32,000 nt of DNA from Halomicrobium mukohataei DSM 12286 (GCF_000023965.1 NC_013201.1:30001-62000), one strand, 5' to 3'; shown: positions 6,080 to 24,768, counted from the first letter of the stretch. Translations and numbers: made by a program. The notes: generated by a model from the sequence alone, not told the origin.

Positions 6080-6106
6080 CGCACACAGCCACTATCCGGG
6101 CCGATG

Positions 6107-6545
6107 TCACGGAAGGCCATCTGTTAGGTCGACGAGGTCCTCGTCGGTCTGCCAGCGATACAGCCGTCCCTCCTGCTCGAACAGATCGAAGACACCGTCC
6201 TGCATCCAGCCGAAGAGATGCTTCTCGTCCTCGTACTCCCGTTTGAGGACGTGGCTTTTCGCGAAGAACTCGGTCGTGCCGACGAGCAACCCTTGTTCGA
6301 CGAGGAAGTCGCTCAGTTCCTCTCGGCGACGCCGACAAGGTAGGTCACGATATCACCAATCAGGCAGAACTTCTGGATGTTATCGTCCCACTCGGCGCGG
6401 ATGTCGACCATCCGGAAGGCGTAGGCGGTCCTGTCGGCGGTTGAGTCGGTCGATCACGAGGTTCAACCGGCGGGGCTCCCGGTCGTGGTTCCCCAGCACG
6501 AAGTACGAGAACGCCCCTCGCCCGAATACGGGATAAGCACGTATT
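6107..6545 (-). pseudogene. Frameshifted, 5'-truncated gene remnant with a GNHD metallophosphoesterase-like motif
   Basis: Hand translation of the minus strand gives three pieces in three frames. They are GAFSYFVLGNHDREPRRLNLVIDRL, then TAYAFRMVDIRAEWDDNIQKFCLIGDIV, then EELSDFLVEQGLLVGTTEFFAKSHVLKREYEDEKHLFGWMQDGVFDLFEQEGRLYRWQTDEDLVDL. No start codon is present. Only the GNHD motif supports the family call. Confidence 0.3.
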
Positions 6546-6854: not shown

Positions 6855-7289
6855 ATGCCCCGCGCACTCATCGATACGTCAGTCCTGTTTGCAGCCGCGT
6901 ACAAGCGAGATAATTCACACGACGGCGCACTTCCAGTGCTCCAGGGCATCGATACTGGAACGCTTCCTGAGGCAGTCGTCCTCGACTACGTTCTCGCCGA
7001 AACGCTGAACGGCCTCACGACACACGCCGGCCACGACGCAGCGGTCGATCTCCTTGATCGCATCGAAGAAAACGCCCGCTTCCACATCGACACACTCACC
7101 ATCGATGCCCTCGCGACAGGAAAGTCCCTCTTTCGCCAACACGAACCCCTCTCCTTCGTCGATGCCTGTATTGTCGCGTATATGCAAACCGAGGGTCTCG
7201 GCTACCTGTATGCGTTTGATGACGATTTTGACGCTGTCGAGGACGTCTATCGGCTCGAAACAGCGACGAATCCCTACGATCCAAACTGA
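6855..7289 (+). CDS. vapC: PIN-domain ribonuclease toxin (VapC)
   Basis: The four PIN acidic positions are readable: LIDTSV, LAET, FVDA, FDDDF. The 144-aa size and coupling to an AbrB-type antitoxin fit VapC. Confidence 0.9.
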   Translation: MPRALIDTSVLFAAAYKRDNSHDGALPVLQGIDTGTLPEAVVLDYVLAETLNGLTTHAGHDAAVDLLDRIEENARFHIDTLTIDALATGKSLFRQHEPLSFVDACIVAYMQTEGLGYLYAFDDDFDAVEDVYRLETATNPYDPN

Positions 7290-9318: not shown

Positions 9319-10662
9319 TCACCCCTCGAAGAAGTCCTCGATCTGAGCGTTGACGACGGACTGGATCAGTGACTCGTCCTGCTCGACCTCTTCGAGTCGG
9401 ATGTCCGAGCGCAGCGTTTCGGCGACGACCTCTGGATCGTCGACGAACGTGTACTCTTTGTGGACGCCGCTGCCGTAGCCACGGCCCCGTTTCTCCGAGG
9501 TGACGAAGTTGTAGGTCTCGGCCTCGCCCATGTACCGGAGGTAGGAGTCTCGAGACTTCTCGTCCGTGTCCAGAAGCTCCGTGAGATACTGATAGACGCG
9601 GTAGGCGACCGTACTCGGGACGGCGTTGAGGTTGCGGTTCGAGTAGACCGGGACGATCGCCGTCGCGTACAGCGAGAGCTTCTTCTGGGAGGAGAGGCCC
9701 TGCATCTGGGTCAGCGTCCGGTCGCGTTCGGCCTCTTCCTGTGCGTCGCGAACGTGCTGTTCGTGGACCGTGTCGTCGCCGGCACGGTCCGCGATCTCGC
9801 CTGCCGTCCGGAACAGGTCGATCGCTTTCCGCGCGTCGCCGTGATCCTGTGCCGCGAAGGCAGCACTGAGCGGGATGATCCCGTCTTCGAGGACTCCCTC
9901 CTGGAACGCGTCGCGTCGGCGTTCCAGGATCGCCTGCAGCTGGTTGGCGTCGTAGTCCGAAAACACCACGTCCTGAGGGTTGAACGAGCTCTCGGCACGA
10001 CCGTCGAGTTCCTCCATGAAGCGCGGATCGTTCGTGAGGGCGGCGACCGAGACGTGCTGGTCGATCCGGCCCAGCTGAGAGGCCCGGGACAGCTGATACA
10101 GGAGTTTCGAGTACGCCGGTTCGTCGTTTGGATCCCGCTGGCGACCGACGAGCAGGTCGACCTCGTCGAGGATGATGATGACCGACTCGAAGTGTTCACT
10201 CAGAATGTCGTAGAAACGGTTGAGCTTCTGGCTCGTGGAGACCCCGCTCTGTGGGACGCCGACCTCGACGCCCGCTTTCGCCGCGGCGTTTTCCACGAGC
10301 TGGTAGACGGCTCGATCGTGTGATTTGAGCGTCTGGCAGTTGATTTCGACGACGCCGAAGTCGATGTCCTGGCTGTTTGCCAGTTCGATCACCTGCTGGC
10401 AGACGGCGTTGATGATCAGGGACTTGCCGGTCCCAGACGGGCCGTAGAGTAGCATATTCGGCGGGCGGTTGCCCTGCAGCGCCGGCCGGAGATACGTGAT
10501 GATGTCTTCGAGCTGTTCGTCGCGACCGACGATGCGGTCCTCGTCGATAACGGCGTCCGGATCGAGGAGACCCTTGTCCCTGAAAACGGAGTCCTGGACG
10601 CCCTCCTGAAGTCGTCCCTTGATAGACTGGGACAGTGACTGCTGGTCGTCGCCGTCACCCAT
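9319..10662 (-). CDS. orc1: Orc1/Cdc6 replication initiator
   Basis: Walker A LLYGPSGTGKS, Walker B VIIILDEVD, an AAA+ lid and a C-terminal winged-helix region are readable. I prefer the start MGDGDDQQ at 10662, which lies 26 nt downstream of a TATA-like element. The ORF-track start is 10689. Confidence 0.95.
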   Translation of the reverse strand: MGDGDDQQSLSQSIKGRLQEGVQDSVFRDKGLLDPDAVIDEDRIVGRDEQLEDIITYLRPALQGNRPPNMLLYGPSGTGKSLIINAVCQQVIELANSQDIDFGVVEINCQTLKSHDRAVYQLVENAAAKAGVEVGVPQSGVSTSQKLNRFYDILSEHFESVIIILDEVDLLVGRQRDPNDEPAYSKLLYQLSRASQLGRIDQHVSVAALTNDPRFMEELDGRAESSFNPQDVVFSDYDANQLQAILERRRDAFQEGVLEDGIIPLSAAFAAQDHGDARKAIDLFRTAGEIADRAGDDTVHEQHVRDAQEEAERDRTLTQMQGLSSQKKLSLYATAIVPVYSNRNLNAVPSTVAYRVYQYLTELLDTDEKSRDSYLRYMGEAETYNFVTSEKRGRGYGSGVHKEYTFVDDPEVVAETLRSDIRLEEVEQDESLIQSVVNAQIEDFFEG

Positions 10663-10687
10663 GATACCGTGATATAATCCACATCGC

Positions 10688-10695
10688 AAATAAAG
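10688..10695 (-). promoter_or_regulatory. Candidate TATA box for orc1
   Basis: The minus strand reads CTTTATTT, 26-33 nt upstream of the ATG at 10662. That spacing fits a leaderless haloarchaeal transcript. Confidence 0.4.
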
Positions 10696-11577: not shown

Positions 11578-11650
11578 TCACCCACTCACTCACCCACTCA
11601 CTCACCCACTCACTCACCCACTCACTCACCTACTTACTCGCTCACCCACT
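11578..11650. repeat. 12-bp tandem repeat (CCCACTCACTCA)n
   Basis: Four perfect copies span 11581-11628. A degenerate fifth copy (CCTACTTACTCG) and a partial sixth follow. The repeat lies between the origin and the stop of the HEAT-kinase gene. Confidence 0.95.
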
Positions 11651-11674: not shown

Positions 11675-14500
11675 CTACAGGTCTTCACACGCCTCCTGTA
11701 GAGCGTCCCGGAGGTACAGGATGTCGTCGTACCGCTGGGCTTTCGATTTGGACAGTGCCGTCAACAGGATCTCGTCTACGCGCGGTGGGACCGCTGCGAT
11801 CTCGCTTGGCGGCGTCGGCTCACTCTCCAGGATCTGGTACATCGCCTTCGATGGATTACTGTCGAACGGTGGCTGTCCGGTGAACAGCTCGTAGAAGACC
11901 GCGCCGAGTTGATAGATGTCCGTGCTGTGATCGCTGGTCCCGTAGTCGTCGTCGAACTGCTCCGGTGCGGCGTACTGTGGCGTGAGCCCCTGTACGCTCT
12001 GGGAGTGTTCGAGCAACTGCTTCGAGAGTCCCCAGTCCGCTACTTTCGGCACGTCCCAGGCGTCTTCGACCGTCCGAAAGAGGACGTTCTCGGGCTTGAG
12101 ATCGAGGTGAGCGACGCCGTGCTTGTGTGCGTGGCGAACGGCCTTCGTGACTGCGAGCGCGGTCCAGAGCTTCTGGGCCAGACTCATCTCTCCAGCCCGT
12201 TCGCCGAGGTGTCCGCCGTCCATGAACTCCATTCCGATCCACGGGACCGGGCTCGCCCCCCAGTCGACGACGCCGACGATGTGGTCGTGTCCGTCCAGCC
12301 TGTCCCACCGCTCGGCTTCGTCGAGCAACCGCTCGATCGTCTCGCCGTGAATCGTCCCCGACATCCGTGGTCTCTTGATCGCGATCGACGTGTCTTCCGT
12401 CCCGCTCGAAACCGACGCCTCCACCACGTCGGCGTTGCCTCCCTGTCCGATCGTCCGTTCCTCTTCGATCTCGTCGAGGGCGATCTCCGCTTCTGGCGCA
12501 CCCGGAATGTCTGCCGGTCGCCGTTTGTCGACGTGGACCGACGCTGAGCTGTCGTCATCGTCGTCCTCTGACGTGTTTGCAGCTAGAATTGCCTCTACTC
12601 GCTCGACCGTCGCCGCTCCGAACCGCTTCGACTCGCCAGAGCGGAGCAGGTCTCGCAACGGCTCCGGATCGTGTCTGGCGACCTGGGCGAAACAGGACCC
12701 TGCGTAGTCCTCGATGGTGTCGTTCCCGTCTGCCAGTAGTGGGACGATCGACGGAAGGTAGTCGGCGACCCGTGACGGGTGTTCTTCGGATACGGTTGCG
12801 AACGTGGAGGCGGCGAACTTTCGTGTCGATCGCTTCGGATCGTCGAGTCGCGATTCGATCGCGTCCAGATGGTCGACCACCTGTCGGGGCTCTTCTTTGG
12901 CCACTTCCGTGAACACGTAGGTCGCAAGGTTTCGCGTGTTCTCGCTCTCGTCGTCGAGTCGCGGTTCGAGTGCGTCCAGATAGCCACTCACTCGCCGAGG
13001 GGAGACCTCGACGCCCTCGCTGAACGGAGTGGTCGCGAAGTTTCGCGTCGGTCGTTTGGGGTCGTCGAGCCGTGGTACGAGCGCGTCTAAGTAGTCGAGT
13101 GTCTGCCGGGGCTCTTCCTTGGAGACCTCTCCGAAGACGTAGGCCGCGAGGTTTCGCGTGTTCTCGCTCTCGTCGTCGAGTCGCGGTTCGAGGGCGTCTA
13201 TATGGCCACTCACTCGCTGGGGGGCAACCTCGACGGCTTCGCCGAACGCGGTGGTCGCGAAGTTCCGCGTGTTCCCACTCGCATCGTCGAGGCGGTCTTC
13301 GAGCGCGTCCAGAGAGTCGAGAACCTGGTTCGGTTTCTCGTTAGCGACTTGCTTGAAGACGTAGGTCGCGAAGTTTCTCGTTCCTTGGCTTTCGTCATCG
13401 AGGCGATCTTCGAGCGCGTCGAGATAGTCAATCGTCAGCCGTGGATCTTCCTTGGAGACTTCCTTGAAGACGTAGGTTGCGAAGTTTCTCGTTTCCTGGC
13501 TCTGATCGTCGAGGCGGTCTTCGAGCGCGTCGAGATAGTCATACGCGAGGCGTGGCTCTTTTTTGGCGACTTCCTTGAAGACGTACGCTGCGAAGTTCCT
13601 CGTCTTCTCTCCCCGGTCGTCGAGGCAGTCTTCGAGCGCGTCGAGATAGCCGCTCGTGTGGCGTGGCTTCTCCTTTGCGACTTCCTTGAAAACGTAGGCC
13701 GCGAGGTGTCTCGTGTTCTCACTCTCGTCGTCGAGTCGTGGTTCGAGCGCGTCCAGAGAACGACTCACTGGCCGGGGGGCGACTTCGACGACTTCGCTGA
13801 ACGCGGTAGTCGCGAAGTTCCGAGTGGATTGTTTGGCATCGTCGAGCCGTGGCTCGATCGCGTCCAGATAGTCGATCACCTGTCGGGGTTCTTCCCTAGA
13901 GACCTCTCCGAAGACGTAGGTCGCGAGGCTTCGCGTATTTTCGCTCTTGTCGTCGAGCCGCGGTTCGATCGCGTCCAGATGGTCGCTCACTCGACGGGGA
14001 TCGACTTCGACCACTTCGCTGAACACGGAGACCGCGAAGTTTCGTGTCGATTCCTCGGCGTCGTCGAGTCGCGGTTCGACCGCGTCGAGAGAGTCGATTA
14101 CCTGCCGGGGGTCCTCCTGGGCGACCTCTTTGAAGACGTAGGTCGCGAGATTTCGCGTATTTTCGCTCTCGTCGTTGAGGCGTGGTTCGATGGCGTCCAG
14201 ATAGTCACTCACTCGCCGGGGGTCGACTTCGACGACCTCGCTGAACGCGAACAGCGTGAAGTTTCGCGTCTTGCTGTTCGAATCCTCGAGACGCGGTTCG
14301 AGAGTGTCGAGATAGCCCCTCACTCGCCGTGCGTCCGATTTGGCGACCTGCTTGAACACGTAGGTAGCTGTCTGGCGGTTCTTGGGCTGGTTGCTGTCGA
14401 GAAACCGACCGGCCGCGTCGAGATCTACCCGGGCCGGAGCGCCATCGGCGTCACGCCGCAGACTGTCGATCTCACGAGTCGAATCCTCGTCGGTGTCCAT
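11675..14500 (-). CDS. HEAT-like repeat array fused to a C-terminal Hanks-type Ser/Thr kinase
   Basis: About 15 tandem 37-aa repeats (LDA[IL]EPRLDD.S.NTRN.A.YVF.EV..E.PR) span roughly 12690-14410. The kinase spans roughly 11690-12490, with motifs GQGGNADVV, IAIKRP, HLDLKPENVLF, ADWGLSK and APEQ. A TATA-like ATAATTT (minus strand, 14529-14535) lies about 30 nt upstream of the ATG at 14500. Confidence 0.95.
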   Translation of the reverse strand: MDTDEDSTREIDSLRRDADGAPARVDLDAAGRFLDSNQPKNRQTATYVFKQVAKSDARRVRGYLDTLEPRLEDSNSKTRNFTLFAFSEVVEVDPRRVSDYLDAIEPRLNDESENTRNLATYVFKEVAQEDPRQVIDSLDAVEPRLDDAEESTRNFAVSVFSEVVEVDPRRVSDHLDAIEPRLDDKSENTRSLATYVFGEVSREEPRQVIDYLDAIEPRLDDAKQSTRNFATTAFSEVVEVAPRPVSRSLDALEPRLDDESENTRHLAAYVFKEVAKEKPRHTSGYLDALEDCLDDRGEKTRNFAAYVFKEVAKKEPRLAYDYLDALEDRLDDQSQETRNFATYVFKEVSKEDPRLTIDYLDALEDRLDDESQGTRNFATYVFKQVANEKPNQVLDSLDALEDRLDDASGNTRNFATTAFGEAVEVAPQRVSGHIDALEPRLDDESENTRNLAAYVFGEVSKEEPRQTLDYLDALVPRLDDPKRPTRNFATTPFSEGVEVSPRRVSGYLDALEPRLDDESENTRNLATYVFTEVAKEEPRQVVDHLDAIESRLDDPKRSTRKFAASTFATVSEEHPSRVADYLPSIVPLLADGNDTIEDYAGSCFAQVARHDPEPLRDLLRSGESKRFGAATVERVEAILAANTSEDDDDDSSASVHVDKRRPADIPGAPEAEIALDEIEEERTIGQGGNADVVEASVSSGTEDTSIAIKRPRMSGTIHGETIERLLDEAERWDRLDGHDHIVGVVDWGASPVPWIGMEFMDGGHLGERAGEMSLAQKLWTALAVTKAVRHAHKHGVAHLDLKPENVLFRTVEDAWDVPKVADWGLSKQLLEHSQSVQGLTPQYAAPEQFDDDYGTSDHSTDIYQLGAVFYELFTGQPPFDSNPSKAMYQILESEPTPPSEIAAVPPRVDEILLTALSKSKAQRYDDILYLRDALQEACEDL

Positions 14501-14640
14501 CGCTCCTCTCGGCGTAGGATCTCCAGTTCAAATTATCTTCCCACTAGAACACCTCTCGAATCGGAGCGAATACGGACACTCCTCGGTCACGTTCCTCTCG
14601 GTCAGTACGTTGAAGCCACTCCCAGTCCAACGACCTGCAG

Positions 14641-17226
14641 ATGAGTGACTCACGGGAGCCGGACCCTTCGACCGTCGAGAGCCCGAGTCGGCGGTCGCTG
14701 TCGCCCGACTCGTTCGATCACGGGGCAGTGATCGGTCGAACTCCCACGACGGTCGTCCACCGGATCGGGGTCGGCGCGGACGATCAGATCGCGGTCAAAC
14801 ACCCGGCGACCCACGGGACCCTGGGCGGTGACGTGTTCGATTCGTTTCGACGGGAGGGCAAACGGTGGGCTCAACTGGCCGACCACCCCCACATCGTCGG
14901 CGTCGTCGACTGGGGCGAGAGCCCGCTGCCGTGGCTCCACCACGACGCCGACGTGCCGTGGGTCGCGATGGAGTACATGGACGGCGGGGATCTCGGGGAG
15001 TACACGGAGGAGCTCTCCATTGAGGGCAAGCTCTGGGTCGCCGAGCGACTCGCCGACGCCGTCTGGTACGCACACCACGACGGCGGCGGCCTGATCCACC
15101 ACGATCTGAAGCCCGAGAACATCCTCTTCCGCGAAACGCCGGACGAACAGTGGGACGTGCCCAAGATCGCCGACTGGGAGCTCGCCCGGACGCTCCTGAA
15201 CCACTCCGACAGCGTCGGCGTCACCACGCCACAGTACGTCGCGCCCGAACAGGCCCACAACGAGTCGACCGACCAGCTCACCGACCAGTTCCAGCTGGGA
15301 ATCGTCCTCTACGAGCTGTTTACCGGGACCTATCCGTTCGTCGACGGTCCCGAGTCGGCACCCGAAGCGGCACTGATCACGGGCATCCTGCGGAACGATC
15401 CCGTCCCGCCCAGCGAGCGTCGACCCGTGGTGCCGTCGGCGCTGGACGACGTGGTCCTGACGATGCTGGCAAAGGACCCCGACGATCGCTACGAGGCGAT
15501 GCTCCAGGTCCGGAACGACCTGCGTGCGATCGAGCCAGGCGACGACCGCTCCGAGGAACCGGAGCCGAACCCGGCCGCTCGGAGCCGTCCTGACTCCCGT
15601 TCGGTGCCGACCCAGACGGCCGACTGGAACGGTGTCGGCGTCGGCACTGGCGTGGTCCTCGACACCACTGCTCGCGGAGCGGCGGCGATCAGGACCGACC
15701 TGGCAGACGACGGGACCTTCTACCTGAGCGATCTGGACCACGATCTCGAACCCACCCAACGGGTCTCGCTCTACTACGAGGGGGACGATCCGGGAGCGAG
15801 CGACATTATCGAGGTCCAGCCCGTCGAGAGCGACGAGGAGCCGCCCGCAGTGGGCGACAGCGAGACGTTCGGCGAGGGCGTGGTGATCGACACGACCGGC
15901 GACAGCAAGGCGGCCGTCGAGACCGACCTCGCCACCGACGGCGTGTTCTACCTCAGCGGTATCGAGGCGACCCTCCAGACCGGTGACGCGGTCGCGCTTC
16001 GCTACGAGGGATCCGATCCGACGGCGAGTGACGTCTCGCAGGTGGTGCCGATCGACGAACTCGACGCGACGGCGTCCGTCGCGGCCGACGACACCGGAGA
16101 GGGCGAACCCGCGGGGGAATCCTCCCCGGCCGGAGAGGTCGAACCCGCGGAGGAAACACCAGCCACCGACAGCGCCCGGCCGATACGAGGGAGTTGGCCG
16201 CGATCCGGGAACGATCAGGGCCGCACGCACGCAACGGACCAACAGGGTCCCGACGGTTCCGTCGACGTGCTGTGGCAGGCGGAGATCGGGAGCGGTCTCG
16301 AAGCGCCGCCGGTCGTCGCCGACGGGACCGTCTACGCCGGGTGCTCGAACGGAACGACGGTCGCACTCGACGCGGGGACGGGAACGAAACGCTGGCAGTT
16401 CGAGACGAGAAACGACGTCGTCGCCGCGCCGGTCGTCGCCGGTGAGACGCTGTATGCGGTGAGCAAGGACGCCCACGTGTACGCGATCGACCGCGAAGCG
16501 GGTACCGAGCGCTGGGCCTACGACACCGGGAGCGCGATATACGCACCACCGGTGGTGGCCAACGACCGCGTCGTCGTCACCGCACGTTCGGGCGCTGTCG
16601 CGGCGATCCACACCGAGAGCGGAACCGAAATGTGGGCCGTCGAGACGACGCCCGGCATTCGCGTTCCGGTGACCCAGTACGGCCGGCGACGGCTGCTGGT
16701 CGGTGACGACAACGGCGTGGTACACGTCCTGACGAAGGGTGGCTCCGAGCAGGCGACGATCGACATCAGTGGCCGTGGGCGCATCCGAACGCCGATCGTC
16801 GCGCCGGGAAACTCCGGAACGGTGCTGGTCGGTGACACGCTGGTCGACCTACAGCGCGAGACCGTCGTCGATACGCTCGCCCGCGGGGTCCGGTCGCTGC
16901 CCGCCGTCGACGAGGGGACGGCCTACCACGTGACCGATACGGAAGTCAGGGGCATCGAGATCTACAGCGGCGAGCAGATCGTTTCCTACGGCTTCGACGG
17001 CTCGACGAGTCGTCTCGGGACAGAAACGACACCGGCGATCGCCGACGGCATCGTGTACACGGGCCTCGGTGACGGAACGGTCGTCGCGTTCGACGGCACG
17101 ACCGGGCGGGAACGCTGGCGACGAGAGCTCGGCTCGACGGTCGCCGGGTCGCCGGTTCTCCTGGACGGACACCTCTTCGCCGCGACGCGTGACGGGACCC
17201 TCTACGCGCTCGCCGGCCAGGCGTGA
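14641..17226 (+). CDS. Ser/Thr kinase-like domain / duplicated small beta-rich domain / PQQ-like beta-propeller protein
   Basis: The kinase spans about 14700-15530 (IAVKHP, HHDLKPENILF, IADWELAR, APEQ). Two tandem domains lie at 15649-16056 (GVV.DTT...A.TDLA.DG.FYLS). PQQ/BamB-like blades span about 16264-17223 (AAPVVAGETLYAVSKDAHVYAIDREAGTERW and similar). Confidence 0.95.
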   Translation: MSDSREPDPSTVESPSRRSLSPDSFDHGAVIGRTPTTVVHRIGVGADDQIAVKHPATHGTLGGDVFDSFRREGKRWAQLADHPHIVGVVDWGESPLPWLHHDADVPWVAMEYMDGGDLGEYTEELSIEGKLWVAERLADAVWYAHHDGGGLIHHDLKPENILFRETPDEQWDVPKIADWELARTLLNHSDSVGVTTPQYVAPEQAHNESTDQLTDQFQLGIVLYELFTGTYPFVDGPESAPEAALITGILRNDPVPPSERRPVVPSALDDVVLTMLAKDPDDRYEAMLQVRNDLRAIEPGDDRSEEPEPNPAARSRPDSRSVPTQTADWNGVGVGTGVVLDTTARGAAAIRTDLADDGTFYLSDLDHDLEPTQRVSLYYEGDDPGASDIIEVQPVESDEEPPAVGDSETFGEGVVIDTTGDSKAAVETDLATDGVFYLSGIEATLQTGDAVALRYEGSDPTASDVSQVVPIDELDATASVAADDTGEGEPAGESSPAGEVEPAEETPATDSARPIRGSWPRSGNDQGRTHATDQQGPDGSVDVLWQAEIGSGLEAPPVVADGTVYAGCSNGTTVALDAGTGTKRWQFETRNDVVAAPVVAGETLYAVSKDAHVYAIDREAGTERWAYDTGSAIYAPPVVANDRVVVTARSGAVAAIHTESGTEMWAVETTPGIRVPVTQYGRRRLLVGDDNGVVHVLTKGGSEQATIDISGRGRIRTPIVAPGNSGTVLVGDTLVDLQRETVVDTLARGVRSLPAVDEGTAYHVTDTEVRGIEIYSGEQIVSYGFDGSTSRLGTETTPAIADGIVYTGLGDGTVVAFDGTTGRERWRRELGSTVAGSPVLLDGHLFAATRDGTLYALAGQA

Positions 17227-17250
17227 CGACTCGGTTCGCCCGCGATCTCC

Positions 17251-17314
17251 GATGGCACGGTCCCGGATATCACAGTCCCGGATGCCGTAGTTTCAGATGG
17301 CGCGGTCCCGGATG
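17251..17314 (+). repeat. Three direct repeats containing GTCCCGGAT upstream of the AAA+ operon
   Basis: GATGGCACGGTCCCGGAT lies at 17251-17268, CACAGTCCCGGATG at 17271-17284 and GATGGCGCGGTCCCGGATG at 17296-17314. Confidence 0.6.
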
Positions 17315-17475
17315 AGTCTGTGCCCCATGCCGGAACAAAACATTTCCCGGTCCAACCGAAACGTGCGTAGCAACGTGGTTTTCTCAGGAACGACGCCGTT
17401 CTCGTCGCGTGATCGCGCACCGACCGGACCCGACGACGGGCACACGCCCGCGTCGGCCGAGCGGGACTCGGGACG

Positions 17476-18402
17476 ATGACGGTCCCGGAGACGACGGCGG
17501 ACGCCGACACCGTCGGTGAACGCACGGGCGAGCAGTTCGGCGAGCTCTCGGTGCTGGCAGACACCGGGCACGAGAAGGTACCGGAAATCGAGCGCGACGA
17601 CTACCACCACCGCCAGATCGAGGGCGATCGGACGGACGTCGAGATCGTCACCCGCGCGCTGGAACTGGGGATGAACGTCGTCCTCAAGGGTCCCCCCGGC
17701 GTCGGCAAGAGCTTCCTCACGCGGTACGTCTGTGCGATGACGAACCGACCGCTGTACCGCGTGACGCTCTCGGAGACGACGTACCGCGAGGACCTGCTCG
17801 GTCACCTCCATCTCGTGAGCGGCGACGGCGGCGAAACGGTCACGGAGTGGATCGACGGGCCGCTGACCCGTGCGGTCAGGGAGGGAGCGGTCCTCCTGCT
17901 CGACGAGATCAACGCCGCCGACGCCAACACCGTCGCCGCTCTCAACGCCGTGATGGAACAGCGCGCGACCCGGTCGCTGACGATCCCACAGACGGGCGAG
18001 CAGCTCGTCCCACACGAGGAGTTTCGCGTCGTCGCGACCTCGAACCCCGGCTATCAGGGGACCTACGAGCTCAACGACGCCTTCGAGGATCGGTTTCGCC
18101 ACGTCAAGCTCTCCTATCTCCCGGAGTCGGTCGAGGTCGAACTCGTCTTCGACCGGACGGACCTCGACAGGGGGAAAGCAGCTCAGATCCGGGACCTGGT
18201 GTCGTTCGCGAGCCGACTCCGGGAGGCGTACGTCGACGGAGAGCTGTCGACGCCGGTCACGACCCGGGAGCTCGTTCGAATCGCCCGGTTCATGGAAGAC
18301 GACTTCATGACCGTCGGGGAGGCGGCCAGGAGCGAACTCGTCGCGCGCGTCGACGAGTACGACGAGTCGCTGGTCCGAACCCTCATCGACAAACGACTGT
18401 AG
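17476..18402 (+). CDS. CbbQ/NorQ-type (MoxR-superfamily, AAA_5-like) AAA+ ATPase
   Basis: Walker A is VVLKGPPGVGKS. The run WIDGPLTRAVREGAVLLLDEINAA (Walker B), TSNPGYQGTYELNDAFEDRF and the ~300-aa single-AAA size match the NorQ/CbbQ pattern. Confidence 0.93.
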   Translation: MTVPETTADADTVGERTGEQFGELSVLADTGHEKVPEIERDDYHHRQIEGDRTDVEIVTRALELGMNVVLKGPPGVGKSFLTRYVCAMTNRPLYRVTLSETTYREDLLGHLHLVSGDGGETVTEWIDGPLTRAVREGAVLLLDEINAADANTVAALNAVMEQRATRSLTIPQTGEQLVPHEEFRVVATSNPGYQGTYELNDAFEDRFRHVKLSYLPESVEVELVFDRTDLDRGKAAQIRDLVSFASRLREAYVDGELSTPVTTRELVRIARFMEDDFMTVGEAARSELVARVDEYDESLVRTLIDKRL

Positions 18403-20307
18403 ATGCGACTGACAGCACAGACCGAGCCGCCGGACCTCGCCGCCCTCTCGACGCCAGAGCGGGCCTCCAGCGAGCGCCGCCGAGAGCTCGAACGCCTCGC
18501 GTCGCTGTGTACGGACAGGGAGAGGACGATCTCGATCGCCTTCGACGAGGAGCGAGCGTTCGCTCGGCCGGCCGAGGGGGCCGGCCCGGACGCCTACGAG
18601 ATCGTGCTGCCGACGGAGAAATACGAGCAGCCCGGCACGGAGCTGCCGCCGGGGCTGTGGGATCGCTCGATCCAGGTCGCCTTTCTCTTCCACGAACTGG
18701 GCCACGTCTACTACTCCGACTTCGATCGCTTCGGCGACTGTTTAGAGCGGGTCGACGGGCGCTGGCGCGACCTGTTTCGGATGGTGTACAACACCGCCGA
18801 GGACGGCGTCGTCGAGACTCAGATCGCCAACGAGTTCTCAGTCACCGACGACTTCGTCCTCCTCAACGACGTGCTCGTCTCGCGGGCCGACGAGCGACAC
18901 CGCGCGTACGTCGACCTGTTCGACCTCGCGACCGCCGACGGCGAGCCGGTCCAGTCCTACACCGTCTTCGAAGCCCTCGCAGTCGGGCTGCTCGACCGTG
19001 GCTTCGTCGACAGCGGTCGCTTCGCCGCCATCGTCGACCCGGACGACGACCGGCGTGTCGTCTACGACGGCCAGCGGGAGGCGCTCGTCGACCTCGTCCC
19101 GGCGATGGACGAGTTCGTCGCCGACGTGCTCTCGGAGCCCGACGGCACCCGGCGGGTCGACCGGGCCCACGACTTCTTTGAGACCGCCAGAGACACCCTC
19201 GCTGGGCTCCCGCCGCGACAGAACGGTCGGCTCCAGACCGCGCCGGTCCGGCCCAGCGACGCCCGGGCCCGCGCCGGCTGGACCGCAGACGCGGCGGACC
19301 GGCTGCCCGACGACGGGGCGGCCAGCGCGCACGTCGCCCGAGATCGCGCTGCTGACGACCGGTCCGCCTCCGGAGCCAGCGGTGCGGGAAGCGTCGCCGA
19401 TCCGGACGAGGACCGGCGGCCGCCGGGCCGCGTCGAGGACGACACGGTCAGACGGGTCCGGCGACGGAGCGTGCGCGCCCAGTCGAACCGGGCGGGCTCG
19501 GGCCGGTCACCCCTCGAACGCGAGGCCCGACACCTCCTCGATGTCGTCGACGACGAGTCGACGGCTCTCGAAGAGGTGATCGTCGTCGACCCCGCCGAGG
19601 ACGGTGGCGACCGGGACCGCTGGGACGACGCGGTCGGGCGTTCGAAGCAACTCCAGCGGGACCTCTCGACGCAGCTTCGCCGCGAGCGCCGTCCCAGAGA
19701 TGAGCCTGGTCATCGCACCGGCCGACTCGACGGGCGGCGACTCGTCGGCGCGAGCCACGGGGCCCAGCGGGTCTTCACCCGCCGGGAGTCCGGGACGGCC
19801 AAAGACCACTCCTGTCTGGTCGTGCTGGACCGGTCGGGATCGATGGACGGCGAACCGATCCGGACGGCCGAGACTGCGACGGCCCAGCTCGTCCACGCGC
19901 TGTTCGCGGTCGGGGTCGACGCGTCCGTGCTGTCGATCTGGGAGGGGTATCCGTGTCTGGAACTCCCCTTCGGGGGTCGCCCGTCCGAGCACGTCGACCG
20001 GCTGATGACCGAACGTGCGGACTGGGGGACGCCGCTCTCGACGGCCGTCGCCGTCGCCCGTGAGCGCCTCGACGACGGCCGGGGATCTCACCCGTTCGTC
20101 GTCGTCGTGACCGACGGCGCGCCGGACCACCCCGACCGCTACCAGTCGCAGCTGGCGGCGTGTACCGTTCCCGTGTTCGGCGTCTACATCGGGTCGGAAC
20201 CGGGCACTCACACCGAGTACTTCGACCGGATCGTCCACGCCGAGACCGACACGCTCGCACGAACGATGCAGCGCCTCGTCAGGGCGCTGTTCTCGACGGA
20301 GGCCTGA
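18403..20307 (+). CDS. VWA-domain protein (NorD/CbbO-like partner) with an N-terminal HExxH motif
   Basis: The start ATG directly follows the upstream TAG (TAGATG at 18400-18405). The C-terminal VWA domain has the MIDAS motif VVLDRSGSMDG plus FVVVVTDGAPD. The N-terminal region has FLFHELGHVYYSDFD and a downstream NTAEDG. Confidence 0.9.
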   Translation: MRLTAQTEPPDLAALSTPERASSERRRELERLASLCTDRERTISIAFDEERAFARPAEGAGPDAYEIVLPTEKYEQPGTELPPGLWDRSIQVAFLFHELGHVYYSDFDRFGDCLERVDGRWRDLFRMVYNTAEDGVVETQIANEFSVTDDFVLLNDVLVSRADERHRAYVDLFDLATADGEPVQSYTVFEALAVGLLDRGFVDSGRFAAIVDPDDDRRVVYDGQREALVDLVPAMDEFVADVLSEPDGTRRVDRAHDFFETARDTLAGLPPRQNGRLQTAPVRPSDARARAGWTADAADRLPDDGAASAHVARDRAADDRSASGASGAGSVADPDEDRRPPGRVEDDTVRRVRRRSVRAQSNRAGSGRSPLEREARHLLDVVDDESTALEEVIVVDPAEDGGDRDRWDDAVGRSKQLQRDLSTQLRRERRPRDEPGHRTGRLDGRRLVGASHGAQRVFTRRESGTAKDHSCLVVLDRSGSMDGEPIRTAETATAQLVHALFAVGVDASVLSIWEGYPCLELPFGGRPSEHVDRLMTERADWGTPLSTAVAVARERLDDGRGSHPFVVVVTDGAPDHPDRYQSQLAACTVPVFGVYIGSEPGTHTEYFDRIVHAETDTLARTMQRLVRALFSTEA

Positions 20308-20310
20308 ACC

Positions 20311-23300
20311 GTGTTCGATCGGACGCCGCGGTCGCTCCGTGTCGGCTTCGAGACCGGACACCTCTCGGGCGAGTCGGTGATCGACCGCGCGCTCCCAGCC
20401 CTCGGTTCGGAGACGATCGCGCGGCGACGAGCAGCGCTCGCGGCGCTCGCGGCGGCCACCGACTCACGGCCCGACCGGACGACCGAAGTCGTCGACGCGG
20501 TCGAGTCGTCGATCGGACCGGGAGCGACCCCGACGCGGGCAGAGCTGGCGGCGTTGCGTGATCTGGGCTGCCGTCGGCCGCGGGCGTTCGCGCCGCTGGT
20601 CGAGACGTTCCGACGGCCCCTCACGCATGCCGGCGAATCCGCCGTCGACACCGCCGCGCTCTCGGCGCTCCTCGGTGATCTCGGCACCGCGGCTCCGGGT
20701 GTGGCAAAGCCACTGCTCGGCCCGCTGGTCGACGCGGCCGACGACGCCCACCCGGCAGTCCGAAACGAGGCCGCCTGGGCGGTCGTGCGGGTCGCGACGA
20801 GCGAACCGGCCATGCTTCGGCCCCTCGTCGCCGGCCTCGTCTGGGAGCTGGACCGCGAGAACCCGGCCACCGTCCGTGACGCGCTCGCGACGCTCGGCCG
20901 GATCGGACAGTTCCTGCCCGCCCACCTCGCGGGACTGGACGCGATCGCGTCGCTGCTCGACCACCCGTCCCCGGACGTTCGGACCGCCGCGATCGAGGCC
21001 CTCGGGGAGACGGCGGGACGCGGTACGAAGTTCGACACCGGCGTCTCAGCACCGGCCCGCGTCGAGCCCTTTCTGGACACCGTTGCCGAGCGCGCGACCG
21101 ACCCGGAGCCACAGGTCCGGGCAGCGGCCCTCAAGACGCTGGGACGGGTAGCTCGCCACGAGCCACGCCTGGCTGGGACGTACACCCAGCGGTTCCTGGC
21201 CGCGACCGACGACGACGACCGCCGCGTTCGGCACACGGCCCTCAACGCGATCGGTGACACGTTCGATCCGTCGACGATCGATCTCGCGCGCTTCCAGCGA
21301 CGGGTGGTACCCCGGCTGACCGACGGAGACGACGACGTTCTGGGTGCCGCCGTCGGGGTGCTCCTGACGGCCGTCCGGGCACTGCGCTCGGACCACCCCG
21401 GACGGGCACGGTATCTCGTCGATCTGCTCGTGTGGTTCCAGCTGTCGCCCCACAGCGGGCTGGGCGTTCCGGATCCACTCGACGAACTGGGCTCGGAACT
21501 GGCCGCACTCGCCGATCTCGACCGGTATCTGGAAGTCACGCGCACGCTCCGAGACGCCGACGACGACTCGCTGCGCCACGCGGGCGTTTCGATCTGCGAC
21601 GCGATCGCGCGCCACGCCGACAGCCATCGGCTCGCGGCCGTCGGCGTCCTCCAGTCGATGCTCGCCGACGAGGACGAGCACGTGCGGCGGCGCGTCCTGT
21701 CTGTCTTCGAACGACTCGCCGAGATCGAACCGACCCTGTGCTCGCTGCTCGGGCGGATTGCCTGGCCCGTGGCCGCCTACGATCCCGCGGTGCGACCCCA
21801 GGCCGTGTCGGTGCTCGCAGCCACCGGACAGACCGACGCCAAGCACCACACCGGACCGGTCGCCGTGCAGTGTCGCGTCCTCCGGGACCGCCGGGACGCC
21901 GAGGACGAGGGCGACGGGATGGATATTCTCGATCCGGACCCGGCGTCCGAACCGCTCCAGCGACTCGCCGAGGCCGCGCCGGAGGCCGTCACCGAGGCGG
22001 CACCGACGCTGGTCGAGTTCCTCGGCGACGACGAGTGTGACGCGCTCGTCGCCGAGGCCCTCGCTACTGCCGTCGCCGAGGGTGGCCGACTCACGACGGC
22101 GACCGTTCGGCGTCTCGAAGCCGTCGTCCAGTCGGACCCGGTCGCGCCGCCGCTGCTCGCGTGGCTCTCGACGCTCCTTCTCCTCGACGGCGACGAGGCA
22201 GCGCGCAGACGGGCACGCGACCGCCTCCACTCCCTGGCCGAGCGACGCGAAGAGACGCCGCTGCTCGCGTGTCTGTCCGTGCTCGTCGACCACGAGCCGA
22301 CCGTCGTCGCCGAGGTGCTCGGCTCCTGTCCGCCCGGCGAGACGCTCTCGGAGTCGCGCGCCCGGCGACTGGCGAGGCTCGTCACCGCTCACCCGCGACT
22401 CCTGTTGCGCTGTCGGACCGGCTGGTCGCCGTTCCCCGAGAGCGCACGCGAGCGCGAGCGCCCCGGACGGACGGCGTGGCCGACGGCGCTGGCCGAGACG
22501 GCTCCCCAGACCGTCTCGGCGACTGACTGGCTCGCAGAGCGGTTCTGGACCGACGACGGCGAACTGACCGCGTCCCTGCTCGAAACGATGGGCCGCGCGG
22601 ACTCGCTCCCGGGCGGTCCCGACGATGCGTGGCGACACCACCCCAGTCCCGCGGTCAGAGACGCCGCCTGCGCGCTGCTGGACGGTGACCCAGACACAGA
22701 CGGGGACGCCGAGCGGGGCGCTTCGACGGTCGACCCGGCAGCGGCCACGGCCGACACCGTCGACGAGATCGCGTCCCGCCTCGCCGCGGCGTCTCGCGAC
22801 CGCTGTCGCCGCGCCTGCGAGCGTCTGGTCTCGATCGCCGTCCACGCTCCCTCCCTGCGTCCGACCGTCCGTCAGCAGCTCCTCGCCAGTACCCCCACGC
22901 TCCGGGAGACGGCCTCGCCCGTCGCCGTCCTCGGCGCGCTGTCGACGCTCGCTCCCCGCGTCGAGACCCCCTCTGAGCGGACGGCCTCCTCGGCTCCACC
23001 GGCAGAGAGCGTCGGGGCGTTGCTCTGTCGGTACGCGTCCGCGCCGTCGCCCGGCGTCCGCGACGTTGCACTGTCCGCGTTGCGTGTCGGGGCGACGGAC
23101 GAGCCGGCGGCGCTCGCGGACGTGGTGATCGAGCGACTGCGCGACCCGTCCGACGCTGTTCGCGCCCAGGCCGCCCACACGGCCGCCACGCTGGTCGGAG
23201 ACTCCCTGCGCGTCTCCTCGCCCCTCGTCGACGCGCTCTGTGACGCGGTCGACGGCCCTCGATACGTCGCGCTCGCGGCCTGTCGCGCGCTGGGTCACTG

Positions 23301-24768
23301 CGGAGCGATCGAGCCGTCGGTCACGGACCGCGTGGTCGCGGCGTTGACGACGCACCTTCGCGCACGCGAGCGCGGCGTCAGGCGCTCGGCCGCCGGTGGG
23401 CTCGCCCGAATCGGTCACGCCGATCCGGCTGCGCTCGTCCCGGTCGCCGACACGCTGTGTGACCGGATCCGGACCGACAGCGTGACGCGGCCCGCTCTGT
23501 TGTCCGTGGTGACGATCCTGGTGACGGAGTGCTCGGTGGCACTCGACTCACTCGTCGAGCCGTCGCTGACGGCCCTCGTCTCCGACACCTCTCCGACCGT
23601 CACCCGTGCCGCCGGTCGCTTGCTCGCCGCCGTCGCCGAGGACGCGCCCGGCACCGTTCACGGACGGCTCCACCCCGTCGGCGAGCGCCTCCACGAGGAG
23701 TACGACGGCGAGATCGTCACCAACTTCCGGGACATCGCTCCCAGCCCGCTGTCGACGTACTGGCTCTTTCGGGTCGTCGCCACCTGCGCGCGGGCCAACC
23801 ACACGATCACGGAGTCGTTCGCGTGGGCGCTGTCCGAGACCGTCGACTTTCTCACCTCGCCCGCGGCGGCCTCGCCCCACTACGACCTCCCGCGCGACAG
23901 CGTCACCACGGACGGACTGGCGACGGTGACCGCGCGAGCGGCGGGGCTCGGCGGCGACTCGTCCTACGAGACGATCCTCGAATCGTGGCCGGGCGATCCG
24001 ACGAAACCGTCCCTGGAGCCGGCGGTGACCGCGCAGTTTCTCGTCCTCGTCGACGACCAGACGCGGGACCGCTCGTTCGAACACATCGAGAATCACGTCG
24101 CGCCCGCCGACCGCGACGACGTTCTGGCGGCACTGCTTTCCCAGTCGGTCAACCTGAACCGCTACGAGGCCGTCTTCGCGTCGCTCACCCGGCTCCTCCC
24201 GCTGAGCGACGACGAGGGGCTGCACCGCCGCGGCGTCGCGACGCTGCTCGACGCCTGCGAGGCCCACAACTGGGCGGTTCGCGTCGACGCCATCGAGGCG
24301 ATCGCGACGCTCGGAACCACCGCGGTGCTCCCGGCCGACGAGGCGATCGGTCACCTGCTGGGACGGCCCGGGCGGGAACCGCGAACGCACGAGGCGATCG
24401 TCGACGCGGTCCTCGACCTGCTGGGCCACGCCGAACGCACGCCCGAGACGGTAGCCACCGCGATGGCCGTCCGGTACGAACGCGGCGGACCAGCGCGTCG
24501 CCGACTCGCCGTCTGGCTGCTCGGGCGACTGGCGACGCGCCACGCGACGGTCCGCTCGCGAGCGGTGGCGACCCTGCTCGCGGCGCTGTCGGACTCGGAC
24601 CGCTGGGCGAGAGAACGGGCCGGCGAGGACCTGGCCGCGATCGCGGCGATCGATCCGGAGCCACTCGCCGCCCACCGCGAGCGACTCGAACGTCGGGTAA
24701 CGCGGGCCGACGGCGAGGTGGCGGATGACCTCCGGACGTGTCTCTCCGAACTGGACGACCCGAGGTAA
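20311..24768 (+). CDS. Giant (1485 aa) HEAT/ARM-repeat protein
   Basis: A GTG start lies 3 nt after the VWA stop. HEAT-type helices carrying the characteristic D/N-x-x-VR recur along the whole length. Examples are HPAVRNEAAWAV, SPDVRTAAIEALG, EPQVRAAALKTLG, DRRVRHTALNAIG, SPGVRDVALSAL, SDAVRAQAAHTA, ERGVRRSAAGGL, NWAVRVDAIEAI and DRWARERAGEDL. Confidence 0.85.
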   Translation: MFDRTPRSLRVGFETGHLSGESVIDRALPALGSETIARRRAALAALAAATDSRPDRTTEVVDAVESSIGPGATPTRAELAALRDLGCRRPRAFAPLVETFRRPLTHAGESAVDTAALSALLGDLGTAAPGVAKPLLGPLVDAADDAHPAVRNEAAWAVVRVATSEPAMLRPLVAGLVWELDRENPATVRDALATLGRIGQFLPAHLAGLDAIASLLDHPSPDVRTAAIEALGETAGRGTKFDTGVSAPARVEPFLDTVAERATDPEPQVRAAALKTLGRVARHEPRLAGTYTQRFLAATDDDDRRVRHTALNAIGDTFDPSTIDLARFQRRVVPRLTDGDDDVLGAAVGVLLTAVRALRSDHPGRARYLVDLLVWFQLSPHSGLGVPDPLDELGSELAALADLDRYLEVTRTLRDADDDSLRHAGVSICDAIARHADSHRLAAVGVLQSMLADEDEHVRRRVLSVFERLAEIEPTLCSLLGRIAWPVAAYDPAVRPQAVSVLAATGQTDAKHHTGPVAVQCRVLRDRRDAEDEGDGMDILDPDPASEPLQRLAEAAPEAVTEAAPTLVEFLGDDECDALVAEALATAVAEGGRLTTATVRRLEAVVQSDPVAPPLLAWLSTLLLLDGDEAARRRARDRLHSLAERREETPLLACLSVLVDHEPTVVAEVLGSCPPGETLSESRARRLARLVTAHPRLLLRCRTGWSPFPESARERERPGRTAWPTALAETAPQTVSATDWLAERFWTDDGELTASLLETMGRADSLPGGPDDAWRHHPSPAVRDAACALLDGDPDTDGDAERGASTVDPAAATADTVDEIASRLAAASRDRCRRACERLVSIAVHAPSLRPTVRQQLLASTPTLRETASPVAVLGALSTLAPRVETPSERTASSAPPAESVGALLCRYASAPSPGVRDVALSALRVGATDEPAALADVVIERLRDPSDAVRAQAAHTAATLVGDSLRVSSPLVDALCDAVDGPRYVALAACRALGHCGAIEPSVTDRVVAALTTHLRARERGVRRSAAGGLARIGHADPAALVPVADTLCDRIRTDSVTRPALLSVVTILVTECSVALDSLVEPSLTALVSDTSPTVTRAAGRLLAAVAEDAPGTVHGRLHPVGERLHEEYDGEIVTNFRDIAPSPLSTYWLFRVVATCARANHTITESFAWALSETVDFLTSPAAASPHYDLPRDSVTTDGLATVTARAAGLGGDSSYETILESWPGDPTKPSLEPAVTAQFLVLVDDQTRDRSFEHIENHVAPADRDDVLAALLSQSVNLNRYEAVFASLTRLLPLSDDEGLHRRGVATLLDACEAHNWAVRVDAIEAIATLGTTAVLPADEAIGHLLGRPGREPRTHEAIVDAVLDLLGHAERTPETVATAMAVRYERGGPARRRLAVWLLGRLATRHATVRSRAVATLLAALSDSDRWARERAGEDLAAIAAIDPEPLAAHRERLERRVTRADGEVADDLRTCLSELDDPR

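Follow-up and report, generated by a model that had tools for sequence, protein, structure and literature searches.

To our knowledge, the clients of MoxR-class AAA+/VWA pairs are understood in only a handful of cases, namely CobN, ChlH, NOR, Rubisco and pre-ribosomes. Here we examine a 32,000-nucleotide (nt) stretch of Halomicrobium mukohataei DSM 12286 (NC_013201.1:30001-62000), called the window below, which contains a block of five open reading frames (ORFs) at positions 11,675-24,768. Three of these are adjacent and encode a AAA+ ATPase, a VWA protein with an HExxH motif and a giant HEAT-repeat protein. We consider it likely that this trio is a conserved haloarchaeal motor and adaptor in the style of CobSTN and NorQD, acting on or through a HEAT solenoid platform. 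A motor-adaptor of the CobST/NorQD type with a giant HEAT third subunit, and with kinases as local additions, is apparently undescribed. A literature search (MoxR with HEAT and haloarchaea; cobST with phage) returned no description of the trio, and the preliminary description of this DNA had likewise not recognised the combination as a described system.

The cobaltochelatase subunit CobT consists of a peptidase-M48-like N-terminal domain that contains a sheet of three strands, a disordered linker about 90 residues long, and, at the C-terminus, a domain made up of a shaft and a VWA domain (preprint 10.64898/2026.07.21.739949). The shaft, Q373-R413, inserts into the CobS ring, and in the CobSTN complex the armadillo-like domain VI of CobN lies beside the MIDAS (metal ion-dependent adhesion site) of CobT; the peptidase-like N-domain of true CobT serves structurally (preprint 10.64898/2026.07.21.739949). 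In the NorQ-NorD pair, NorD puts a finger into the NorQ pore and acts by twisting (PMC13036017). For the CobS/CobT pair of haloarchaeal viruses, the only one treated there, use of the host CobN was proposed (Liu et al. 2021, PMC8651126). Two ternary systems built on MoxR ATPases have been described by comparative genomics (Kaur et al. 2020, eLife 9:e52696, PMC7159879). The MoxR-vWA-beta-propeller system, found in a few bacterial phyla, has a strict C-terminal propeller on the vWA protein and often a GXXXTAKS P-loop, and the VMAP system has the N-terminal motifs WxhapG and PsWRxa in its MoxR protein and VMAP as third component.

The five ORFs of the block lie where the preliminary description had placed them, and the domains it had named were recovered with Pfam. 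A HEAT-kinase gene (11675-14500, minus strand, 941 aa) and a kinase-propeller gene (14641-17226, plus strand, 861 aa) diverge from a spacer of 140 nt (14501-14640, read directly). They are followed on the plus strand by the three core genes, encoding the AAA+ ATPase (17476-18402, 308 aa), the VWA adaptor (18403-20307, 634 aa) and the giant HEAT protein (20311-24768, 1485 aa). The stop codon of the AAA+ gene is coupled to the start of the VWA gene in TAGATG at 18400-18405 (read directly), and the giant starts 3 nt past the VWA stop, in TGAaccGTG at 20305-20313; the spacer and both junctions are thus as first reported. All five genes are under purifying selection (dN/dS 0.17-0.34 between two Halomicrobium species), and no transmembrane-like segment was found in any of the five proteins. 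The VWA gene of the window is 100% identical to that on plasmid NZ_CP039376.1 (221,861 bp) of H. mukohataei JP60, whose annotated gene order agrees with the window. The genes of the block are also found in H. katesii (97% match for the VWA gene) and on a plasmid of Halomicrobium sp. LC1Hm (93%).

The order in which the plus-strand kinase gene precedes the three-gene block, also given in the preliminary description, holds, but the two are separated by an intergenic region of 249 nt (17227-17475, plus strand). This region includes 15-nt repeats of the GGTCCCGGAT type (17251-17314) and a block at about 17330-17385 that is common to the three Halomicrobium species and reads CCGGAACAAARCATTT ... 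AACGTG ... CAACGTGG. The repeats and the conserved block upstream of the AAA+ gene are a possible promoter and regulator site. As the gap contains a block conserved in three Halomicrobium species, the three core genes probably have their own promoter within 17227-17475 and would form a separate transcription unit.

The AAA+ protein matches Pfam AAA_5 (8e-30) and CbbQ_C (5.6e-5; 23.7 bits, cut-off 20.6), and both its Walker A (GPPGVGKS, aa 72-79) and Walker B (VLLLDE, aa 139-144) motifs are canonical. Among proteins of solved structure, its top match by sequence is Midasin, whose five AAA modules taken together give 3e-77. Nearly end-to-end matches were obtained to NorQ (1e-26), CbbQ (2e-25) and CobS (2e-20), in agreement with the CbbQ/NorQ type originally proposed for this protein. 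Across genera, the AAA+ proteins are 66-95% identical. The AAA_5 core, the Walker motifs, the CbbQ/NorQ-type C-terminal lid and the VWA/MIDAS partner encoded alongside in 17 of 17 scanned loci are those of the CbbQ/GvpN/NorQ-CobS branch of the MoxR class. On these features, the AAA+ protein belongs to the CbbQ/NorQ/CobS branch of MoxR ATPases.

The adaptor (634 aa) begins with a HExxH domain and continues through a disordered linker into a shaft and a MIDAS-bearing VWA domain, a layout that agrees with that of CobT. Fifty-five close relatives were found in an index of 5.8 billion proteins, and all of those with a source name are from Halobacteria. Invariant columns were read from an alignment of 46 sequences. 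The N-terminal domain (aa 1-275; 18403-19227, plus strand), examined through these columns and an AlphaFold2 model, includes the sequence HELGH at aa 97-101 (nt 18691-18705), followed by a helix with invariant N130, E133, D134 and E138. Across the wider family, 128 of 142 representatives still have the HExxH motif. In the model of aa 1-300 (predicted local distance difference test, pLDDT, 89.5), three strands are followed by the HExxH helix and then by the helix that carries E133 and E138. This predicted arrangement would fit a gluzincin in motif and topology, with no significant fold match to any peptidase. Foldseek aligned the N-domain with that of the CobT-like protein of HVTV-1 (E 1e-15, TM 0.78) and with a series of Caudovirales 'CobT/VWFA' proteins (E 1e-5 to 1e-3). 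Against the PDB library (to April 2026, in which newer CobST entries may be absent), no Foldseek match of the N-domain fell below E 0.5, and no CobT chain was returned, although CobT chains are present in the PDB sequence copy. At the level of hidden Markov models (HMMs), too, the N-terminus had no match to the solved CobT.

The sequence similarity to CobT lies further along the chain. A low-complexity linker at about aa 280-370 (19240-19512, plus strand), with variable, gap-rich and poorly conserved columns, corresponds to the disordered CobT linker of about 90 residues. It is followed by an Arg-rich helix and shaft equivalent at about aa 410-468 (19630-19806, plus strand), which is among the longest invariant runs of the adaptor and includes L417, L421, L425, R429, R430, G436, R438, G440, D443, G453, F458, G464 and D468. 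The profile of the adaptor family matches residues 220-458 of the solved CobT (5e-9), over a stretch reaching from the linker into the first part of the VWA domain, and aa 430-468 of the adaptor align with CobT Q373-R413 when counted along the profile alignment. The VWA domain (19807-20304, plus strand; Pfam VWA_2 and invariant columns) carries a complete and invariant MIDAS formed by D476-x-S478-x-S480 (nt 19828-19842), T543 and D571, so that the protein initially noted for its HExxH and VWA domains has both the conserved HExxH and a complete MIDAS. The adaptor ends about 60 aa past the VWA domain, with no propeller. Judged by sequence, the pair is CobS/CobT-like and is nearest to the halovirus 'cobST' genes. 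The conserved HExxH/E site suggests metal binding or proteolysis, and the strictness with which it is kept suggests that the CobT-type N-domain is not just a spacer of structural value.

The giant matches HEAT_2/HEAT in Pfam (7.5e-27). The AlphaFold2 model of aa 286-1485 consists of helices only (pLDDT 81), and its best Foldseek matches are CAND1, karyopherins, mTOR (N-terminus) and PA200 (E about 1e-10). No catalytic domain, and no CobN or chelatase domain, was found in the giant with Pfam or in the model. Proteins of this size and fold are rare in archaea. The N-terminal 300 or so residues are the only part recognisable in all giants; this conserved module (about aa 1-305; 20311-21225, plus strand), recognised by blastp of giants and by HMM matches, has the invariant residues G16, R39, P129, P166, R170, A174, R224 and A273 and is a candidate docking site for the adaptor. 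A profile made from the N-terminal alignment of the giants was run against the index of 5.8 billion proteins, where 0 of 8000 candidates scored. The giant evolves about twice as fast as its partners, and the part past the N-terminal module diverges fast. When two Halomicrobium species are compared, the giant has a dN/dS of 0.34, against 0.17 for the AAA+ gene and 0.19 for the VWA gene, and a sliding-window scan of the giant for positive selection found no window above 0.61. Between Halosimplex and Halomicrobium, identity is 88% for the AAA+ protein, 70% for the VWA protein and 43% for the giant.

In order to find the genes that belong together, loci were collected by a pattern scan of one genome per species, which gave 17 loci, 13 of them in a close clade (VWA at least 43% identical) and four distant (about 28%). 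Protein look-ups and a plasmid collection were added, bringing the close clade to 20 genomes from at least 10 genera. Every one of the 17 scanned loci has the AAA+ gene next to the VWA gene, with a gap of 0-10 nt, and the giant, detected with an HMM of its first 330 residues, adjoins the pair in 19 of the 20 close-clade genomes. It lies immediately downstream of the pair in most genomes, upstream in the same orientation in Haloglomus and Halorubellus, and divergent from the pair in Halobaculum saliterrae and Halolamina. The single exception, Halorubellus salinus, has a decayed copy in which the giant is missing and the last 90 or so AAA+ codons remain. The Halolamina pelagica copy is also decayed, with frameshifts in the AAA+ and VWA genes and a truncated giant, though sequencing errors in the draft assembly may account for this. 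A tblastn search with the N-terminal module of the giant matched exactly five of 72,556 plasmids, and the same five plasmids carry a full-length close VWA homologue with the giant adjacent in each. The giant HEAT protein, put forward at the outset as an apparent client or scaffold of the pair, is therefore well placed as its dedicated third partner, being adjacent in 19/20 genomes and 5/5 plasmids.

The distant clade (Halodesulfurarchaeum and uncultured Halobacteriales) has a different arrangement, in which the pair recurs with a DUF1405 gene upstream and a sodium:solute symporter gene downstream, and no giant HEAT gene was found in its loci of the HExxH-VWA/AAA+ pair. Distant VWA representatives from a cluster look-up are metagenomic, and some metagenomic relatives of the pair sit amid many small co-oriented genes. 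On gene neighbourhoods, the conserved unit is three genes (AAA+, VWA and giant) and not five. The preliminary description had joined all five genes into one multi-component system; the AAA+, VWA and giant genes do occur together elsewhere, whereas kinases accompany the trio in only five of 20 genomes and two genera.

The HEAT-kinase has a HEAT array at about aa 38-620 and a Hanks kinase domain at aa 679-923 (Pkinase 3.7e-31). In the kinase-propeller protein, a Hanks kinase domain (aa 43-287; Pkinase 1.1e-28) that keeps the catalytic Lys, HHDLKPEN, DWE and APE and has a degenerate Gly loop precedes a PQQ_2 propeller (about aa 537-861; 5.4e-33). Outside the three Halomicrobium genomes, neither gene was found. 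Within the HEAT-kinase gene, a 111-nt unit is repeated in tandem in 12.5 copies with a 222-nt super-period (12840-14365, minus strand), which suggests recent repeat expansion, and the 480-aa ORF on the opposite strand (13202-14644, plus) is a shadow of these 111-nt repeats. A microsatellite-like TCACCCACTCAC, repeated six times (11578-11650), lies directly 3' of the HEAT-kinase stop codon. The window encodes four paralogous Hanks kinase domains within 32 kb (925-1857, 11675-12520, 14641-15618 and 27317-28261), which share 40-45% identity and keep their catalytic residues. In all four, DW[GE] replaces DFG and the catalytic loop is non-RD, and each is fused to a different partner (Hsp70-GrpE, HEAT, PQQ and wHTH-ferredoxin). 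With four paralogues in 32 kb, the adjacency of kinases is here partly a property of the region.

Accessory genes were counted as genomes, of 20, with the gene within 10 kb of the trio. Hanks kinases were found in five (three Halomicrobium and two Halobaculum), metallophosphoesterases (MPEs) of at least four families in 11, and PQQ propellers, 25-34% identical to each other, in seven. The kinases of Halobaculum saliterrae are 50% identical to the other two kinases of the window and 39-46% identical to the two of the block, and in Halobaculum sp. MBLA0147 the trio has kinase, PP2C and FHA genes nearby. Occurring in five of 20 genomes and two genera, kinases are a lineage-specific linkage and not a defining feature of the system, so that the two kinases lose the place among its components that they had been given at first. 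At the level of domains, the kinase link is suggestive, as the partner domains, HEAT and PQQ, are types that recur with the trio. PQQ is fused to a kinase in Halomicrobium, free-standing in Haloglomus and two Halobaculum species, and fused to the C-terminus of the giant in Halorubellus (1924 aa). MPE-A (YfcE-like, about 221 aa) and MPE-B (PdeM-like, about 190 aa) are both orthologous across genera, with 55-66% identity among Halosimplex, Haloparvum, Natronoglomus and Halobaculum; MPE-B of Natribaculum and Haloglomus shows 38-46% identity. Co-oriented runs were observed in Haloparvum (AAA+, VWA, giant, MPE-A, MPE-B) and Haloglomus (MPE-B, MPE-D, PQQ, giant, AAA+, VWA). On plasmid p117 of Halorubrum sp. 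BOL3-1, a cluster of four or five MPE genes, together with a 547-aa AAA ATPase and genes for a DHH phosphoesterase and a pentapeptide-repeat protein, lies directly upstream of the trio (locus extract 1-6302), from which it is parted by an IS4 element.

Three other associations were considered and rejected. A PP2A-like assembly of HEAT scaffold, PPP phosphatase and propeller does not agree with the linked phosphoesterases, which are YfcE-like or PdeM-like and not of the PPP type. A role in phosphate metabolism, taken from the adjoining PHO4 transporter, fails in that PHO4 is adjacent in Halomicrobium only. The classical AAA ATPase at 29162-30400 has only the generic AAA core in common with the AAA protein beside the Halorubrum trio, and was dropped as an extra component.

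The data show homology, intact motifs and genetic linkage, and all the sequence features that the motor and the adaptor would need are present and invariant. In the solved CobSTN and NorQD structures, a hexameric ring holds a finger or shaft of the VWA partner in its pore, the linker of the adaptor is twisted at the expense of ATP, and a MIDAS is turned towards the third subunit. By analogy, the AAA+ ATPase would form a hexameric ring, and the near-invariant Arg-rich shaft of the adaptor (about aa 430-468) would enter its pore. The HExxH N-domain would dock on the ATPase lid and on the third subunit, while the intact MIDAS would grip an acidic residue of the giant, most probably in the conserved N-terminal 300 residues. 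ATP hydrolysis would then twist or pull the adaptor and so remodel the solenoid or the proteins riding on it. The fast-diverging rest of the solenoid could serve as a docking platform for lineage-specific partners. Such partners may be the metallophosphoesterases, often in the same operon, and the PQQ propellers, once fused to the giant; in Halomicrobium they may be the two flanking kinases with their HEAT array and PQQ propeller.

Several points weigh against this motor-adaptor-platform arrangement. The giant could be client, scaffold or sensor, and the direction of action could differ. The analogy with CobT leaves unexplained the catalytic or metal-binding role that the conserved HExxH suggests. 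No metallophosphoesterase was found in the H. mukohataei window, so the idea of a platform for phosphoesterases cannot hold here as such. Given the low identity among the PQQ proteins and the spread of the MPEs over at least four families, the recurrence of accessory genes could partly mirror a general abundance of these domains in the variable regions of haloarchaea. The trio appears to be accessory, being plasmid-borne in five cases, patchy and once decayed, and its role would more probably be related to stress or conflict than to housekeeping. A role in cofactor loading or maturation of the linked metalloenzymes may equally apply.

It is in our view doubtful that all five genes make up a single integrated system, with the HEAT-kinase and the kinase-propeller as indispensable sensor or regulator subunits. 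The compact arrangement is kept in three Halomicrobium genomes, all four window kinases retain their catalytic residues, the HEAT and PQQ domains of the kinases recur with the trio (including the giant-PQQ fusion of Halorubellus), and kinases are neighbours of the trio in Halobaculum saliterrae and also, along with PP2C and FHA genes, in Halobaculum sp. MBLA0147. However, 15 of the 20 genomes have no kinase within 10 kb, the Halobaculum kinases are nearer to the window kinases outside the block, four paralogues crowd into 32 kb, and the 249-nt gap with its conserved block lies between the kinase-PQQ gene and the trio. A somewhat better case, still a tentative one, can be made for an antiviral or anti-plasmid conflict system, which is compatible with a motor acting on a HEAT platform: the MoxR/VWA pair would be the thresholding switch, sensing would fall to the giant, and the effector part to the HExxH domain or the linked phosphoesterases. 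The conceptual precedent exists (Kaur et al. 2020, PMC7159879), and the five plasmid-borne cases, the patchy occurrence over at least 10 genera with one decayed copy, the giant evolving about twice as fast as its partners, the linked nuclease-like MPEs (PdeM-like and YfcE-like), the CRISPR array and toxin-antitoxin genes of the window, the HerA-like and DndF-like genes in Halorubellus and the viral nearest relatives of the pair would all suit it. Against it stand the absence of any dN/dS window above 1, neighbourhoods that are heterogeneous and include two-component systems, transporters and metabolic genes, and the structural role of the peptidase-like N-domain in true CobT (preprint 10.64898/2026.07.21.739949). 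With PADLOC-DB v2, moreover, no specific defence model was matched by the five proteins: the AAA+ protein gave only mad8 and MkoA (about 4e-4), the giant a generic HEAT match to OloA, and the kinases generic kinase-domain matches such as PD-T4-6 and mad6. A PADLOC scan of ten neighbours in other loci found the HerA- and DndF-like proteins in one locus and otherwise generic kinase, AAA and HEAT matches.

The remaining alternatives are far less probable. The block could be the remnant of an integrated halovirus that carried cobST, without cellular function, as might be suggested by the Druskaviridae homology (28-36% identity) and by the metagenomic relatives found amid many small co-oriented genes. 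This is very improbable: none of the cellular loci has viral genes next to the block, selection on the genes is purifying, the giant is missing from the viruses, and a long divergence parts the clade from the viral sequences. We give hardly any credit to a genuine cobaltochelatase CobS/CobT pair serving a CobN encoded elsewhere, with the HEAT gene as an unrelated neighbour. It is true that the best solved-structure match of the VWA profile is CobT (5e-9), that the AAA+ protein matches CobS (2e-20) and that viral homologues are annotated CobS/CobT with a proposed use of host CobN (PMC8651126). Yet the AAA+ protein scores 75.4 bits with the NCBIfam CobS model TIGR01650 and thus falls far below its cut-off of 558.55, no CobN or other cob gene was found in about 20 trio neighbourhoods, and the giant is coupled within 3 nt, co-occurs reciprocally in 5/5 plasmids and has no CobN domain. 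Just as implausible, and refuted on the defining features, is an identity with the published MoxR-vWA-beta-propeller or VMAP ternary conflict systems (Kaur, Burroughs, Iyer, Aravind 2020). Beta-propellers are found nearby, and the Pfam bpMoxR model (PF20030) matches the AAA+ protein weakly (9.3e-6), but its 25.3 bits are under the 27-bit cut-off, the vWA protein has no C-terminal propeller and the P-loop is GPPGVGKS instead of GXXXTAKS. Neither of the VMAP-type motifs WxhapG and PsWRxa was apparent by eye in the N-terminal 55 residues of the AAA+ protein, for which no motif search was run.

The rest of the window carries the accessory features that the preliminary description had named. In the CRISPR array at 1920-4849, a 30-nt repeat (Rfam CRISPR-DR24, 42.5 bits per copy) occurs at least 43 times, and no cas genes were found within the 32-kb window. 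A weak match to an IS1595-type transposase (5104-6024), a PIN toxin (6855-7289) with MazE upstream and Orc1/Cdc6 (9319-10689) follow. Positions 7-1857 (plus strand) hold the 3' part of a 1159-aa gene that starts upstream of the window and is named 'GrpE' in RefSeq; the part in the window encodes a Hsp70 substrate-binding region, a GrpE domain and a Hanks kinase, an unusual chaperone-kinase fusion. A 681-aa ORF at 26216-28261 (minus strand) joins a Hanks kinase to a pair of winged-helix domains and a 2Fe-2S ferredoxin. Of this ORF, the gene table of the plasmid has only the ferredoxin 'fer', at the 3' end, and in H. katesii a frameshift splits the copy; the ORF may be decaying or mis-annotated. 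The classical AAA ATPase at 29162-30400 (minus strand, 412 aa), with IetA-like PADLOC matches (3.6e-36), is followed by two hypothetical genes, and no protease partner was seen for it. Outside the window, the trio of Halorubellus litoreus (locus extract 11979-20686) lies beside a HerA-like ATPase (1058 aa), two further genes (876 and 204 aa) and a DndF-like protein (4e-31), a neighbourhood that looks like a defence island.

If the trio is the motor-adaptor on a HEAT platform that we favour, it would add an enzyme-free class of client, the giant HEAT solenoid, to the MoxR/VWA pairs. The 'cobST' pair sits in the core genome of many phages and haloviruses, where its function is conjectural, and the trio offers a cellular, genetically tractable relative. 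As the cellular clade appears to work with a HEAT protein and not with CobN, the idea that the viral pair hijacks CobN becomes directly testable. That metallophosphoesterases, propellers and Ser/Thr kinases are repeatedly linked to the trio points to a regulated assembly of several proteins, which may have a role in conflict. A bolder interpretation, which we regard as unlikely, is that the trio is a prokaryotic counterpart of the eukaryotic giant-HEAT holoenzyme platforms. The solenoid would hold catalytic partners (YfcE/Vps29-family and PdeM-like metallophosphoesterases, propeller proteins and kinases) docked and inactive, and the CobST-like motor would load them, possibly with metal centres, or release them when required, via the HExxH site; haloviruses would then carry the pair to manipulate or counteract this host machine and not for vitamin B12. 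If that were so, the function of the widespread phage 'cobST' would be independent of CobN, and the host trio would take part in a conflict between virus and host.

Among more remote systems, Rea1/Midasin with Rix1-Ipi1-Ipi3 combines AAA+ modules, an acidic linker and a MIDAS with alpha-solenoid and beta-propeller partners. Midasin is a single chain of 4700-4900 residues that acts on pre-60S ribosomes. The domain repertoire is like that of the trio, an architectural analogy only, with no claim of orthology. The Bacteroides aerotolerance (Bat) operon encodes MoxR, DUF58, the VWA proteins BatA/B and the TPR proteins BatC/E. It resembles the trio in having a MoxR ATPase, a VWA domain and alpha-solenoid repeat proteins, and differs in its MoxR-proper ATPase, membrane-anchored VWA, short TPR proteins and lack of a HExxH domain. 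The TerY-P triad, said to have been described by Anantharaman in 2012 and Gao in 2020, reportedly comprises a TerY-type vWA protein with an adjacent PP2C phosphatase and a Ser/Thr kinase. No PP2C was found in the window, and kinase, PP2C and FHA genes lie near the trio only in Halobaculum sp. MBLA0147; the VWA protein had no match in PADLOC-DB v2, a library not checked for a TerY model. The ternary systems of Kaur et al. 2020 are like the trio in that a large third component joins a vWA protein and an ATPase of the MoxR class, and their associated domains include solenoid repeats, propellers, kinases and FHA, so that their thresholding-switch logic could apply to the trio. In contrast to them, the trio has no vWA-fused propeller, no GXXXTAKS, no VMAP/iSTAND and a different phyletic range.

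NorQ-NorD, which inserts FeB into cNOR, and CbbQ-CbbO, a Rubisco activase, have ATPases of the same MoxR subclass as the trio. In both, a VWA partner with a pore finger takes part in ATP-driven remodelling of one dedicated client. Unlike the giant, these clients are enzymes (NOR and Rubisco), and NorD and CbbO have neither a HExxH N-domain nor a solenoid third gene. The 'CobS/CobT' proteins of the Druskaviridae HVTV-1/2 and HCTV-1/5/16, and of many bacterial phages, are the nearest relatives of the AAA+/VWA pair that were found. HVTV-2 'CobT' is homologous to the adaptor over its full length, including the HExxH (HECGH) and an NAAEDG motif, and HVTV-2 'CobS' is 28% identical to the AAA+ protein. 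Viral CobS differs in an N-terminal extension of about 90 aa and in inserts, and no giant HEAT neighbour was found beside the viral cobST genes.

A close parallel in composition is CobS-CobT-CobN, with the Mg-chelatase ChlI-ChlD-ChlH, in which, as in the trio, a AAA+ motor of about 310-330 aa and an adaptor of about 630 aa work with a third subunit (CobN, about 1250 aa; giant, 1485 aa). In contrast to the cobaltochelatase, the HExxH is strictly conserved in the adaptor of the trio, and its third subunit, unlike CobN, is a pure HEAT solenoid without a CobN or chelatase domain. Like CobT, the adaptor has a peptidase-like N-domain, a disordered linker, a pore shaft and a VWA/MIDAS, with sequence similarity running through shaft and VWA. 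In CobSTN, it is an armadillo-like solenoid domain of CobN that borders the MIDAS, and in the trio the third subunit is itself a HEAT solenoid.

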